DNA from: a virus
Reading direction: 5' to 3' (one strand)
DNA: 34,531 nucleotides
IMG/VR virus record: IMGVR_UViG_3300027932_000003
Location: 1-34,531 of that record
Below the pieces are notes generated by a model. The model was given only the letters and a program-made list of their open reading frames with translations. It was not told the origin of the DNA and did not search any database. This document shows, one piece after another, positions 1 through 34,531 of the stretch (positions are counted from its first letter, which is position 1; each line of letters starts with the position of its first letter). Made by a program: the position numbers and the translations under genes.

Positions 1-50
1 TGTAGTTTTTTTCATTTTCTGCGAAAATTTCACAACTAATGCAAAAAATT

Positions 51-410
51 GAAAATTCCAATTTCTTTCGTTTTTTTCGTTTTTTTCGCAAATTTCCCAA
101 CTTTCGCAATAAATTGGAAATTCCAATTAATTCTACACCTCCAAATAATAATTGGAGCGGTGCAAAAAATTCAAACTTCCAAAATTCCAATTAATCTGTC
201 ATTTTGCGTAAATTGTGCAAAAAATGAGAAAAATTGTAAATTCCTAATTTCCTAAATTTGAAATAATCTATCATTTTCTGCAAAAAAGTTAAAAAATTGG
301 AAATTCCTAAATTCCAAATAATTCTACATTTCCAAATAATTTTTCAACTATGATAAAAAATACTAATTTTCTAAATTCCTAAATTACAATTAATCTGTCA
401 TTTAGTGAAA
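51..410. repeat. Imperfect short tandem direct repeats inside the ITR (unit approx aaattcc(a/t)aatt, plus recurring aattaatctgtcatt)
   Basis: At least 8 copies of the aaattcc-aatt motif seen by eye between about 51 and 395; aattaatctgtcattt occurs at about 190 and 388; mirrored in the right ITR. Confidence 0.5.
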
Positions 411-1289
411 TTTGTAATATAAAATTTGCAAATTCAAACTTTGGAAATTTGTAATAAATGTTAATTTGTGGATATTAATAACTACTAACTATAATATTAT
501 AATTTATAATTTGGAGGGAACCAAACCCACAATTTAAAGTTTTTAGTTACTAAACATATTCATAATTTATTTAATTTCTTAATTCTAGCAAACCAAAACC
601 TCAATTTAAAGTTAGAAAGATACTAAACATATTGTTAATTTGTTATATTTATTCAAATCGTTATGTGTTGTTAGTTTTTTGCGTTTAGTGTTGGAGAAAT
701 TGGAAGTTTAGAAAGAAAAGTTTATATACCAGAAGAAAGCATTTAGTATTGTTAGTGGGCATTATCTTTCTTCTTATTATTATTTTTTTATATATATTAT
801 TATTAACATTTAAATTAGATAATTATATAATTATGAAGTTATATAATTATATAATTAGCTAACTACTAATTAGTAGTTTATAATATAATAATTATAGTTT
901 TGTAGTTCAAGTGTAAAATATAGTTTCTTTTTTTCTTTCAATTCAATAGAAGATTCTGTATACAGTTTGGATTTATATCAGTATTTTATGGTAAAAATTG
1001 TAAGGAGATTTAATAATTTAGAGAATATGGAAACTATCTAGTTATTCAATATAATAATTATATAGTTATGTAGTTAGTAGTTTATAATTAATAAATTATA
1101 GTCAAACCTAAAATAGGTTTTTTTAGGATTTTTCACCGTTAGGAAACAATTTATGTTTGGTGTTATGAGAGAAATTGGAGAGACAGAATTTACACGTTCT
1201 CTATAGAGAGAGGTGGCGATAAGAGTTAAGGAGATAGAGAATGTTTTATATTCGTCATATAATATATGATGATTTGTAGATGATAAAAA

Positions 1290-1478
1290 ATGACAAGAGT
1301 ACATAAATTAACTGCTGAGCAGAAAAAAATTTTAGAAAGAATGCATAATAGAATAGATTATATTATCAAAGCTTACAAGGAGTATTTGAATGCGTTAGCT
1401 GAATTTGATAGAACTGGTGTATTAAAAATTCATGGGAAAGTCATTTATGAAAGAAAATATAATGATCATCAAAAATAA
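1290..1478 (+). CDS. ITR-encoded hypothetical protein (62 aa), left copy
   Basis: ATG-initiated ORF with balanced helical-looking composition; upstream ttttatattcGTCATAt (1241..1260) about 40 nt before the ATG matches the genome-wide promoter pattern; identical copy in right ITR. Confidence 0.5.
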   Translation: MTRVHKLTAEQKKILERMHNRIDYIIKAYKEYLNALAEFDRTGVLKIHGKVIYERKYNDHQK

Positions 1479-1516
1479 CATAATTATAAGTCGAAAAATG
1501 AAGACATGAAAAGGTA

Positions 1517-1536
1517 GAGAAAGATTTAAATATGAG
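1517..1536 (+). promoter_or_regulatory. BRE/TATA promoter (gagaaagaTTTAAATAtgag) inside the ITR, driving 1567..1764
   Basis: Purine-rich stretch plus TTTAAATA box about 40 nt upstream of ATG 1567; same module recurs at about 1937..1954, 3241..3260 and 3968..3986. The mirrored copy (32996..33015) sits about 39 nt upstream of ATG 32966 on the minus strand. Confidence 0.5.
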
Positions 1537-1566
1537 TTTTTACATATATGATATTGTGAATAAAAG

Positions 1567-7609: not shown

Positions 7610-7954
7610 GTGAACGGTAAAAAAGTTTTTAGCTATCATTTTCTTTATGTTTACACGTATTTTATTACTATTGCTACAAATTATCACTATAATGATACGA
7701 CAAAAATCTATAAAAAATTCAGACAATATATTTATAATCATGATAAAAATTCTCATATTTTTTCAGTAAAAGAATATACAACAAGATTACATGGTCTACA
7801 TTATCATGTTTTAGTTTTCACGAATAAAAGGCTTGACTATTCCAGAGTTCATAAGCAAATGCCAAAACATTCAGATATAAATATTCAATTAGTTCCAAAA
7901 ACAAAAAATGATATAAAAAAAGTTTTAACTTATATGTTAAAAAATCAAAAATAA
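7610..7954 (+). CDS. HUH-superfamily rolling-circle replication initiator Rep (114 aa)
   Basis: LHGLHYHVLVF (HUH motif: H-hydrophobic-H followed by hydrophobics) and VLTYMLK (YxxK, Tyr at residue 108 by my count). The frame has no ATG before residue 84, so the start is GTG at 7610, right at the expected leaderless position. Confidence 0.75.
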   Translation: MNGKKVFSYHFLYVYTYFITIATNYHYNDTTKIYKKFRQYIYNHDKNSHIFSVKEYTTRLHGLHYHVLVFTNKRLDYSRVHKQMPKHSDINIQLVPKTKNDIKKVLTYMLKNQK

Positions 7955-16608: not shown

Positions 16609-16680
16609 ATATCATCAATATAAAAATTTTTATATGACAAATTTAAACATATATATGTCATAATTTTTAAGTTTAATTTG

Positions 16681-17064
16681 ATGAATTTTAGACAATCTGG
16701 AAAATATTATGAATATAAGACACTTAATTATCTTGAAAAACATGGCTATAAAGCTATAAGAATTCCAGTTTCTGGAACTGGAAAACAGCCAATTCCAGAT
16801 ATTATAGCAATTAAGGATAATACAATTTTTCCAATTGAAGTTAAATCAACTTCACAAAATTATGTTGTAATTGATAATTTTCAAATTGATAAATTGTTTA
16901 AGTTCTGTGAGATATTCAATTTTTGTAATTGTAAACCGTTAATACTAGTTCATTATAAAAAATATAAAAATGTCATAATATATAATTTGAGTCAAGATGT
17001 CAGAACAAAAGAAAAAATCAAATTTGCCTTCAGAGCTAACAGCAAAACTGTATTTAGCACTTGA
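16681..17064 (+). CDS. Holliday junction resolvase, Hjc-type (127 aa)
   Basis: ORF track start 16678 is TTG; ATG at 16681. RIPVSGTGKQPIPDIIAIKDNTIFPIEVKS shows the SG ... PD-IIA ... EVK nuclease core of archaeal Hjc; promoter atatatatGTCATAattt. Confidence 0.75.
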   Translation: MNFRQSGKYYEYKTLNYLEKHGYKAIRIPVSGTGKQPIPDIIAIKDNTIFPIEVKSTSQNYVVIDNFQIDKLFKFCEIFNFCNCKPLILVHYKKYKNVIIYNLSQDVRTKEKIKFAFRANSKTVFST

Positions 17065-32992: not shown

Positions 32993-34531
32993 AAACTCAT
33001 ATTTAAATCTTTCTCTACCTTTTCATGTCTTCATTTTTCGACTTATAATTATGTTATTTTTGATGATCATTATATTTTCTTTCATAAATGACTTTCCCAT
33101 GAATTTTTAATACACCAGTTCTATCAAATTCAGCTAACGCATTCAAATACTCCTTGTAAGCTTTGATAATATAATCTATTCTATTATGCATTCTTTCTAA
33201 AATTTTTTTCTGCTCAGCAGTTAATTTATGTACTCTTGTCATTTTTTATCATCTACAAATCATCATATATTATATGACGAATATAAAACATTCTCTATCT
33301 CCTTAACTCTTATCGCCACCTCTCTCTATAGAGAACGTGTAAATTCTGTCTCTCCAATTTCTCTCATAACACCAAACATAAATTGTTTCCTAACGGTGAA
33401 AAATCCTAAAAAAACCTATTTTAGGTTTGACTATAATTTATTAATTATAAACTACTAACTACATAACTATATAATTATTATATTGAATAACTAGATAGTT
33501 TCCATATTCTCTAAATTATTAAATCTCCTTACAATTTTTACCATAAAATACTGATATAAATCCAAACTGTATACAGAATCTTCTATTGAATTGAAAGAAA
33601 AAAAGAAACTATATTTTACACTTGAACTACAAAACTATAATTATTATATTATAAACTACTAATTAGTAGTTAGCTAATTATATAATTATATAACTTCATA
33701 ATTATATAATTATCTAATTTAAATGTTAATAATAATATATATAAAAAAATAATAATAAGAAGAAAGATAATGCCCACTAACAATACTAAATGCTTTCTTC
33801 TGGTATATAAACTTTTCTTTCTAAACTTCCAATTTCTCCAACACTAAACGCAAAAAACTAACAACACATAACGATTTGAATAAATATAACAAATTAACAA
33901 TATGTTTAGTATCTTTCTAACTTTAAATTGAGGTTTTGGTTTGCTAGAATTAAGAAATTAAATAAATTATGAATATGTTTAGTAACTAAAAACTTTAAAT
34001 TGTGGGTTTGGTTCCCTCCAAATTATAAATTATAATATTATAGTTAGTAGTTATTAATATCCACAAATTAACATTTATTACAAATTTCCAAAGTTTGAAT
34101 TTGCAAATTTTATATTACAAATTTCACTAAATGACAGATTAATTGTAATTTAGGAATTTAGAAAATTAGTATTTTTTATCATAGTTGAAAAATTATTTGG
34201 AAATGTAGAATTATTTGGAATTTAGGAATTTCCAATTTTTTAACTTTTTTGCAGAAAATGATAGATTATTTCAAATTTAGGAAATTAGGAATTTACAATT
34301 TTTCTCATTTTTTGCACAATTTACGCAAAATGACAGATTAATTGGAATTTTGGAAGTTTGAATTTTTTGCACCGCTCCAATTATTATTTGGAGGTGTAGA
34401 ATTAATTGGAATTTCCAATTTATTGCGAAAGTTGGGAAATTTGCGAAAAAAACGAAAAAAACGAAAGAAATTGGAATTTTCAATTTTTTGCATTAGTTGT
34501 GAAATTTTCGCAGAAAATGAAAAAAACTACA
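32993..34531. repeat. Right inverted terminal repeat (ITR)
   Basis: Mirror copy of 1..1539; the window ends with the reverse complement of its first bases. Confidence 0.85.
33054..33242 (-). CDS. ITR-encoded hypothetical protein (62 aa), right copy
   Basis: Identical translation to 1290..1478; mirrored promoter. Confidence 0.5.
   Translation of the reverse strand: MTRVHKLTAEQKKILERMHNRIDYIIKAYKEYLNALAEFDRTGVLKIHGKVIYERKYNDHQK

Follow-up and report, generated by a model that had tools for sequence, protein, structure and literature searches.

Nested and conserved sequence modules in the inverted terminal repeat of a rudivirus genome

The closest described counterparts of the DNA considered here are the inverted terminal repeats (ITRs) of the rod-shaped Sulfolobus islandicus viruses SIRV1 and SIRV2 (genus Icerudivirus), which, together with a conserved rudiviral terminal motif (AATTTAGGAATTTAGGAATTT), were reportedly described by Peng et al. 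2001 and Vestergaard et al. 2005 and 2008; a repeat-rich ITR with a conserved terminal motif is therefore an already known rudivirus property. Among more distant systems, poxvirus telomeres combine a mismatched flip/flop hairpin with an adjacent concatemer resolution sequence and with blocks of tandem repeats in the ITR, the repeats being apparently dispensable for resolution. Other replicons with HUH-type replication initiators (Rep) carry iterated Rep-binding sites beside the nick site, as exemplified by the Rep-binding element and terminal resolution site (trs) of the adeno-associated virus (AAV) ITR and by the iterons of geminiviruses and circoviruses. The present analysis concerns positions 51–1103 of a viral DNA of 34,531 bp (IMG/VR record IMGVR_UViG_3300027932_000003; this whole stretch is termed the window), a region which is the non-coding body of a rudiviral (Usarudivirus) ITR. 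An original prediction made from the sequence alone regarded its repeats and an 18-bp palindrome as candidate nicking or resolution sites. On balance, we consider it probable that the repeats are instead conserved cis-acting modules which were multiplied by local duplication and are protein-docking or promoter-like in character, and not themselves cleavage sites.

The window represents a linear rudivirus genome that is complete or almost so. Its 1539-bp ends are perfect reverse complements, its length falls into the range of the Rudiviridae (ca. 25–36 kb), and both a rudiviral Rep and an Hjc-type Holliday junction resolvase are encoded, in line with the genes previously proposed (Table 1). The closest records are the Yellowstone viruses SIRV4–11 and the isolates V3, V60 and V65 (genus Usarudivirus); the core genome is 85–89% identical to SIRV4–11, positions 1–480 are 96–99.6% identical to classified rudiviruses, and no record is identical to the window. 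A copy of the rudiviral terminal 21-mer AAATTCCTAAATTCCTAAATT with one mismatch lies near the end. The assignment as a rudivirus ITR is borne out. For comparison, the window was aligned with 11 Yellowstone genomes and with the Icelandic SIRV1, SIRV2 and SIRV3, and motifs were scanned in SRV (Azores), SBRV1 (Japan), ARV1 and ARV3 (Italy), SMRV1 (Mexico) and several metagenome contigs. Chance levels were derived from dinucleotide-preserving shuffles of the ITR and, for AAATTCC, from a Poisson expectation based on the unique part of the genome, and tandem repeats were located with Tandem Repeats Finder (TRF).

Basically, the ITR is organized like those of SIRV1 and SIRV2. Common features are a long perfect repeat, a T7CA end box followed by T7CG 9-mers, AAATTCC octamers with AATT(A/T)TTCTGTCATTT boxes, two TACTAAACATATT units, a module composed of a B recognition element (BRE)/TATA sequence and an inverted repeat, and a block termed X, which is single in the Icelandic viruses; the colinearity extends over ca. 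900 bp. Differences concern the moderate identity, one more T7CG 9-mer (three compared to two in the window) and an extra octamer unit in the Icelandic viruses, the lack there of a 204-bp X duplication and of the 18-bp palindrome, and the 21-mer, which is exact there but carries one mismatch in the window. The alignment of positions 1–890 with SIRV1/2/3 (68–70% identity) contains non-triplet indels, which exclude a coding function of this ITR stretch; small open reading frames (ORFs) such as 49–255 (68 amino acids) were ruled out as coding by indels of 19, 12, 9 and 8 nt in the Iceland/USA alignment.

The outer ca. 450 bp constitute a nested array of one orientation with a spacing of ca. 63 bp and about seven degenerate copies of the terminal unit. 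The proposal that the terminal 400 bp are built from short imperfect direct repeats is thus supported by TRF and by the repeat families, nested repeats being found by TRF across the ITR, and all predicted repeat coordinates agreed with a direct check. Units start at positions 53, 118, 182, 238, 301 and 373. Nested within these 56–72-bp units are four mini-arrays of the 8-bp AAATTCC(T) element (166–190, 237–258, 301–319 and 363–385), and a 127-bp super-repeat relates 164–283 to 291–410 (70%). AAATTCC is present seven times on a single strand of positions 1–410 (53, 118, 182, 238, 301, 309 and 373), compared to 0.17 expected copies (Poisson P ~7e-10), and never on the opposite strand of this interval. 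The exact repeat of 17 nt is equalled in 0.3% of the shuffles. GTTTTTTTC occurs eight times in the window (1.8 expected), six times within the two ITR ends, and T7CA is found at the extreme end of SIRV1/2/3, ARV1 and ARV3. Exact copies of the 16-mer AATTAATCTGTCATTT are confined to the ITRs; with up to three mismatches, 12 matches compare with 4.95 expected.

Several of these boxes are strongly conserved. The 16-mer is exact in SRV, SBRV1 and ARV1 and differs by one mismatch in SIRV1/2/3, and the composite 31-mer AAATTCCTAAATTACAATTAATCTGTCATTT is found with at most two mismatches in SIRV1/2/3, SRV, SBRV1 and the metagenome contig L047. The 21-mer, which we take to be the published family-wide rudiviral terminal motif and which Vestergaard et al. 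2008 are said to have described as family-defining, is exact in six other rudiviruses (SIRV1/2/3, SRV, SBRV1 and ARV1). Up to five genera have the 21-mer, 16-mer and 13-mer (TACTAAACATATT) boxes in common. Positions 1–480 are 96.3–99.6% identical to all Yellowstone records compared to 85–89% for the core genome, and the mean identity per 50-bp bin among the 11 relatives is 94–99.8% for 1–450, 86–93% for 451–800 and 76% for 801–900. Most elements are therefore conserved in related genomes; a lack of such conservation had been named in the original prediction as evidence against it. As a separate observation, the octamer AAATTCCT is amplified to at least ten head-to-tail copies, with occasional inverted ones, at the record ends of SRV, SBRV1 and two metagenome contigs (L003 1–150, L016 1–110, L047 and L054 20–140), while the window contains mini-arrays of two to three copies only.

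The uniform orientation, the strict conservation, the restriction to the genome ends and the repetition every ca. 63 bp argue for a docking array rather than for cleavage sites or ordinary promoters. In analogy to the iterated sites of other HUH-Rep replicons, the outer array might be a platform on which a protein docks sequence-specifically, next to the Rep-dependent hairpin origin. The likeness to those origins comprises the HUH Rep, a hairpin-associated nick site and adjacent short direct repeats of one orientation. In contrast, the rudiviral Rep is a minimal HUH domain of 114 amino acids with no known duplex-binding domain, and the rudiviral array covers ca. 400 bp compared to ca. 20–40 bp. 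The modules would have been multiplied, and would still be gained and lost, by local tandem duplication and by recombination between copies.

Further in, the duplicated element of ca. 40 bp recognized previously is present but forms only the core of a larger 72-bp tandem. Each copy contains AACCAAAMCC, a TATA-like TTTAAA and the 13-mer TACTAAACATATT (548–560 and 621–633), and the tandem with its box may represent a duplicated promoter-like module. One copy of the unit is found in SIRV11 and SIRV3, two in most relatives and three in L047. The 13-mer is kept in lineages from the USA, Iceland and Japan (three genera), being exact in SBRV1, and is not enriched elsewhere in the genome; a role of the 13-mer and 16-mer as general operators was ruled out because no extra copies are present at gene promoters.

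The 72-bp tandem is followed by an inward-pointing BRE/TATA-like element with a predicted start site inside a covarying inverted repeat and then by a very AT-rich spacer. The element resembles the BRE/TATA sequence of the ITR-edge promoter GAGAAAGATTTAAATA, although it has neither a GTC element nor an ORF behind it. The entire module (711–789, mirrored at 33743–33821) is conserved in the SIRVs from the USA and Iceland, in SRV and in SBRV1, i.e. in four genera, among which seven differing yet complementary arm pairs are found (AGAAGAAAG/CTTTCTTCT, AGGAGAAAG/CTTTCTCCT, AAGAACC/GGTTCTT, AGAACC/GGTTCT, AGAAGG/CCTTCT, GCAAGC/GCTTGC and GCGAAGC/GCTTCGC). With arms defined by anchors, 72 of the 77 inner cells pair, compared to 45–54 when the partner is slid. 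The covariation score of 0.229 (0.094 ± 0.024 in shuffles) was reached by none of 500 shuffles, even though the stems of SRV and SBRV1 were not brought into register by MAFFT and were scored as broken in this formal count. With −4.4 kcal/mol (DNA, 37 °C; z −1.6 to −2.1), the predicted hairpin is of low stability and would not stand alone at ca. 78 °C. Equally conceivable explanations are therefore a symmetric binding site for a protein, which would leave an identical covariation pattern, a structure stabilised by protein, and quasi-palindrome correction during strand-displacement replication.

The 100 nt after the inverted repeat have a GC content of 9% compared to 22% for the ITR. The situation is similar in SIRV2/3/5 and SRV, and in SMRV1 the values are 29% and 48%; in every genus examined the most AT-rich ca. 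100 bp of the ITR follow the module. The spacer at 775–870 is kept in composition and not in sequence, which is what would be expected if it served to unwind DNA or to stop transcription. It is conceivable on these grounds, but in our judgement improbable, that 711–870 harbours a second replication start within the ITR that is independent of Rep. In such a scenario, the AT-rich stretch would be melted and synthesis primed by a short promoter-driven transcript or by a hairpin stabilised by protein, and the module would supply the start of the strand-coupled replication at SIRV2 dimer ends or prime displaced single strands.

The TATA-like sequence next to each conserved box makes the inner modules look promoter-like. 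Most of the virus's gene promoters consist of a TATA box directly followed by GTCAT[A/G], located 22–38 nt before the ATG at 19 of 24 such sites. A virus-specific GTC element in promoters of SIRV1 and SIRV2 is attributed to Kessler et al. 2004 in the account of PMC5569661; it is hereby extended to a Yellowstone virus and to a consensus of 5–6 nt. The ITR 16-mer likewise combines a TATA-like stretch with GTC, but in the form GTCATTT, and none of the five GTCATTT sites precedes an ORF, which renders a promoter function of the ITR boxes doubtful.

An alternative interpretation, which we regard as unlikely although the best of the rivals, is that the modules are mainly inward early promoters producing short non-coding RNAs or long leaders, the inverted repeat and T-run acting as terminator or small-RNA hairpin. 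It would account for the TATA-like sequences beside the boxes, for the virus-specific TATA plus GTC signature of the 16-mer, for the excellent BRE/TATA match at 711–728 with T-runs behind it, for the TATA-like TTTATAAT in the inner X copy (X2) and for the covarying stem arms. However, no conserved ORF follows the modules, sites of the GTCATTT type are not tied to genes elsewhere in the genome, and an RNA starting at the site predicted from 711–728 would lack the left arm because this site lies in the loop; moreover, the stem alone is too weak at 78 °C. There is also no match to an Rfam family, a scan of positions 1–1700 at a permissive threshold giving only three chance-level hits (E 1–5).

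The inner part of the region is characterized by the X blocks and the palindrome. The block reported at ca. 871 and ca. 1074 is present, with TAGTAGTTTATAAT at 871 and 1075; its exactly repeated part is the 15-mer TTAGTAGTTTATAAT (870 and 1074), and the tagtagtttataat block forms the core of a 55–60-bp repeat. The 15-mer alone is marginal, as repeats of at least 14 nt occur in 9% of the shuffles, but the alignment of 840–898 with 1050–1102 scores 52 compared to 25 ± 3.5 in shuffles. A segment of ca. 204 bp bounded by the X repeats is restricted to the window, SIRV10, SIRV4 and SIRV11, while the other eight Yellowstone genomes and the Icelandic SIRVs as outgroup contain a single X block; the duplication is thus an insertion/deletion polymorphism between direct repeats, X2 being the ancestral copy. 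The promoter-like block would have been doubled by insertion of an X copy plus ca. 150 bp. X2 is kept as TAGTAGTTATTAAT.. in SIRV1/2/3 and as TTAGTAGATTATAAT in SRV, and a conserved AAATAG lies ca. 27 nt downstream of its TATA-like sequence. The 18-bp palindrome, found at both predicted positions, exceeds chance only weakly: 3% of the shuffles contain one as long or longer (longest 26 bp). It is intact only in the window and in SIRV8, SIRV9 and SIRV10 (three of the 11 aligned Yellowstone relatives) and not in the Icelandic viruses, its right half TTAGTAGTT being widely kept. Its hairpin has a predicted stability of −3.9 kcal/mol at 37 °C (z −1.2) for a virus growing near 78 °C, and it is situated at the inner edge of the AT-rich spacer in the least conserved part of the ITR. 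We conclude that the palindrome is a local accident of an AT-rich spacer of the TTAG/CTAA type.

Such behaviour of the palindrome and of the 801–900 spacer would also fit the notion that the repeats as a whole are functionless debris of replication slippage or unequal recombination, kept alike among viruses by frequent exchange of the termini. The 72-bp unit, T7CG 9-mer, octamer and X block all differ in copy number from relative to relative, and the identity of the ITR copies over 1539 bp indicates efficient homogenisation. Nevertheless, we hold this explanation to be unlikely, since specific boxes show little or no change between genera of American, Icelandic, Italian, Azorean and Japanese origin, in genomes that apart from this hardly align as DNA, the orientation of the AAATTCC copies is strictly uniform, and order and content of the modules are colinear over ca. 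900 bp between two genera.

The reading as conserved docking and promoter-like modules has to face several objections as well. We know of no binding protein for the array, and protein binding, promoter activity and any role in replication are what we infer from anatomy, conservation and covariation. AAATTCC and the 16-mer were not found by motif scan in ARV3 and SMRV1, which carry other repeats, and the motif is hence not shared by the whole family. Besides purifying selection, recent exchange or homogenisation of ends could be partly responsible for the near-identity that co-circulating Yellowstone viruses show in the outer 450 bp, and the GTCATTT form of the ITR boxes speaks against promoters of the usual type. 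Finally, gp1 of SIRV2, an ITR-encoded protein, shows no sequence specificity in its DNA binding (PMC5537682).

The original assignment of the repeats and the palindrome as cleavage sites can be assessed from the position of the hairpin tip. The tip is missing from the window; its apex lies ca. 23 nt beyond position 1. The assemblies of SIRV5/6/8/9/10/11 read through the turn as ...AAAAAAACTACA-[46 nt]-TGTAGTTTTTTT, where TGTAGTTTTTTT corresponds to window positions 1–12, and the metagenome contig L057 begins with the eight bases TAGGTATT directly followed by window position 1 (read-through records: L004 263–332, L005 1–64, L007, L008, L009, L011, L015 1–80 and L057 1–8). By implication, the turn of these relatives is formed by an imperfect palindrome of 46 nt, which in the Yellowstone viruses would be centred on GCAATTGC with 15 of 23 positions paired. 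The tip occurs in both orientations (SIRV5/6/8/10 and SIRV9/11, respectively), and its equivalent in SIRV3 measures 54 nt. The imperfectly paired tip in two orientations among relatives recalls the flip/flop state of poxvirus telomeres, with which rudiviruses also share the linear duplex with closed ends, a T-run box by the tip, tandem repeats further in and resolution by a Holliday junction resolvase. Rudiviral replication differs, however, in being initiated by an HUH Rep nick and not by a primase, the repeat units are much shorter and fewer, and there is no sequence homology.

Rep is reported to nick a single-stranded oligonucleotide that represents the genome end (Oke et al. 2011, as related in bioRxiv 10.1101/2021.11.18.469202 and PMC5062984) at four sites sharing a 4-nt motif (bioRxiv 10.1101/2021.11.18.469202), and Rep-dependent initiation in vivo is placed at the termini (PMC5062984; bioRxiv 10.1101/2021.11.18.469202); nicking is described in these accounts for oligonucleotides of the terminus, not for internal ITR sequence. 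The SIRV2 resolvase cuts four-way junctions and leaves duplex, hairpin, bulged and three-way DNA intact, producing nicked hairpin ends from an extruded junction (PMC3157427). Being structure-specific, it needs no sequence signal, and due to the location of the tip beyond position 1 the centre of resolution is outside both 51–1103 and the window. Icelandic SIRVs carry exactly four T7C(A/G) boxes within the initial ca. 150 nt of the records; the window contains three and, in addition, a degenerate one, and two of its boxes (71–88) fall within 51–1103. The boxes at 6, 71 and 80 would fit the reported Rep sites in number and place; the link to the four nick sites is one that we infer. Within 51–1103, only the TTTTTTTCG 9-mers (62–88) are plausible Rep nick sites, as the remaining elements (16-mer, 72-bp units, palindrome and X blocks) lie in internal duplex DNA well away from the tip. 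In our reading, Rep acts at the end formed by the hairpin, perhaps also at the T7C boxes of the first ca. 90 nt, and the resolvase on a four-way junction extruded at the head-to-head junction. Although Rep and Hjc are both encoded in the window and T7C boxes lie close to the end, nicking or resolution at the listed repeats and palindrome is the least probable explanation, as Rep nicks at the terminus, the resolvase does not act on duplexes or hairpins, the X blocks delimit an indel and the sole local palindrome is short, near chance, unstable and not conserved.

The cis-acting DNA by which rudiviruses start, restart and finish replication has so far been mapped only at the tip nick. Our comparison yields a short list of boxes conserved across continents, consisting of the T7C 9-mers, the 31-nt octamer/16-mer composite, TACTAAACATATT and the promoter-plus-inverted-repeat module with its AT-rich tail, which are amenable to pull-down, to nicking assays and to the existing CRISPR-based editing of SIRV2. 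The palindrome and the duplicated X block can be set aside. This finer dissection into family-wide boxes, unit-wise variable ones, accidents and a covarying promoter-embedded inverted repeat is useful but modest.

Table 1. Features of the rudiviral ITR and associated genes in the window (34,531 bp)
Feature	Position	Strand	Basis or remark
Left inverted terminal repeat	1..1539, mirror copy 32993-34531	.	perfect 1539-bp identity; without ca. 23-nt hairpin-tip half
Two 65-bp terminal-unit copies	5..128	+	TRF period 65, 83% matches; family D2
GTTTTTTTC boxes	5-13, 70-78, 79-87	+	9-bp TTTTTTTCG tandem at 62-88, TRF period 9 x3
Five further degenerate 56-72-bp units	118..443	+	AAATTCC octamer mini-array first, then AATTCTACA or AATCTGTCATTT box; one orientation
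16-mer box AATTAATCTGTCATTT	189..204 (copy 1), 388-403 (copy 2), 261-276 (degenerate third)	+	exact repeat
One-mismatch copy of 21-mer AAATTCCTAAATTCCTAAATT	238..258	+	motif scan
Composite 31-mer AAATTCCTAAATTACAATTAATCTGTCATTT (octamers and 16-mer copy 2)	373..403	+	identical to ARV1 109-139
72-bp tandem repeat	495..652	+	TRF 2.2 copies, 75% matches, score 174
BRE/TATA-like element GAAAGAAAAG-TTTATATA, inward-pointing	711..728	+	conserved in USA and Iceland SIRVs, SRV, SBRV1
Inverted repeat AGAAGAAAG (731-739) / CTTTCTTCT (766-774)	731..774	.	26-nt loop with conserved TAGTG
T7 run after inverted repeat	783-789		
Extremely AT-rich spacer, 8-bp AATTATAT periodicity	775..870	.	TRF period 8 at 813-857; GC 8-14% per 50-nt bin
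X1, outer block copy ending TTAGTAGTTTATAAT..ATAA.TTATAGT	840..898	+	local alignment; family D9
18-bp perfect palindrome AACTACTAATTAGTAGTT	861..878, mirror 33654-33671	.	confirmed
Segment of ca. 150 bp between X1 and X2	899..1049	+	presence/absence polymorphism
X2, inner block copy, TATA-like TTTATAAT at 1081-1088	1050..1102	+	conserved in relatives
Rep (HUH replication initiator)	7610..7954	+	Pfam PF21578 117-like_vir E 5e-47; PF23343 REP_ORF2-G2P E 8e-8
Holliday junction resolvase (Hjc family)	16678..17064	+	Pfam PF01870 Hjc E 2e-18
TATA+GTCAT[A/G] promoters, examples	2463, 8311, 15851, 16657, 16972, 20806, 25993, 27817	+	
TATA+GTCAT[A/G] promoters, examples	32510, 31958, 16638, 7574, 7198, 6748, 4776	-	

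When viral contigs were scanned with the promoter pattern and with the 16-mer, most matches were attributable to chance and came from AT-rich phage contigs; about half a dozen further rudivirus-like ends were recovered (L028, L047, L054, L057, L224 and L238). The idea that the terminal boxes mimic Sulfolobus CRISPR repeats, with possible recruitment of a repeat-binding protein, was dropped; a Sulfolobus CRISPR repeat sequence had no exact match in genome contigs, and a gapped query produced only scattered single chance matches there in unrelated bacteria. A further ITR repeat, ACTTTCAGTC(N)AACCGAT-like and preceded by T-runs, is common to SBRV1, SRV and SMRV1 (L016 530–600, L003 830–900 and L074 440–560) but was not seen in the ITR of the window.

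Adjoining the inner border of the studied region, a block at 1103–1215 is kept in every Yellowstone SIRV, and parts of it also in the Icelandic viruses; it contains AAATAGGTTTTTTTA, TTTCACCGTTAGGAAACAATTTAT, AAATTGGAGAGACAGA and the palindrome TCTCTATAGAGA at 1199–1210 (DNA fold z −2.4). The ITR edge region (1222–1539 and 32993–33310) includes an ORF of 62 amino acids (ORF62, 1290–1478) with its own TATA+GTCAT promoter (GTCAT at 1254), which among the aligned relatives is common only to SIRV7; neither ORF62 nor the first unique ORF has a match in Pfam. The ITR ends at 1539, directly after the TTTAAATA promoter (1525–1532), and the same promoter would thus drive a different first unique gene at each end of the genome.

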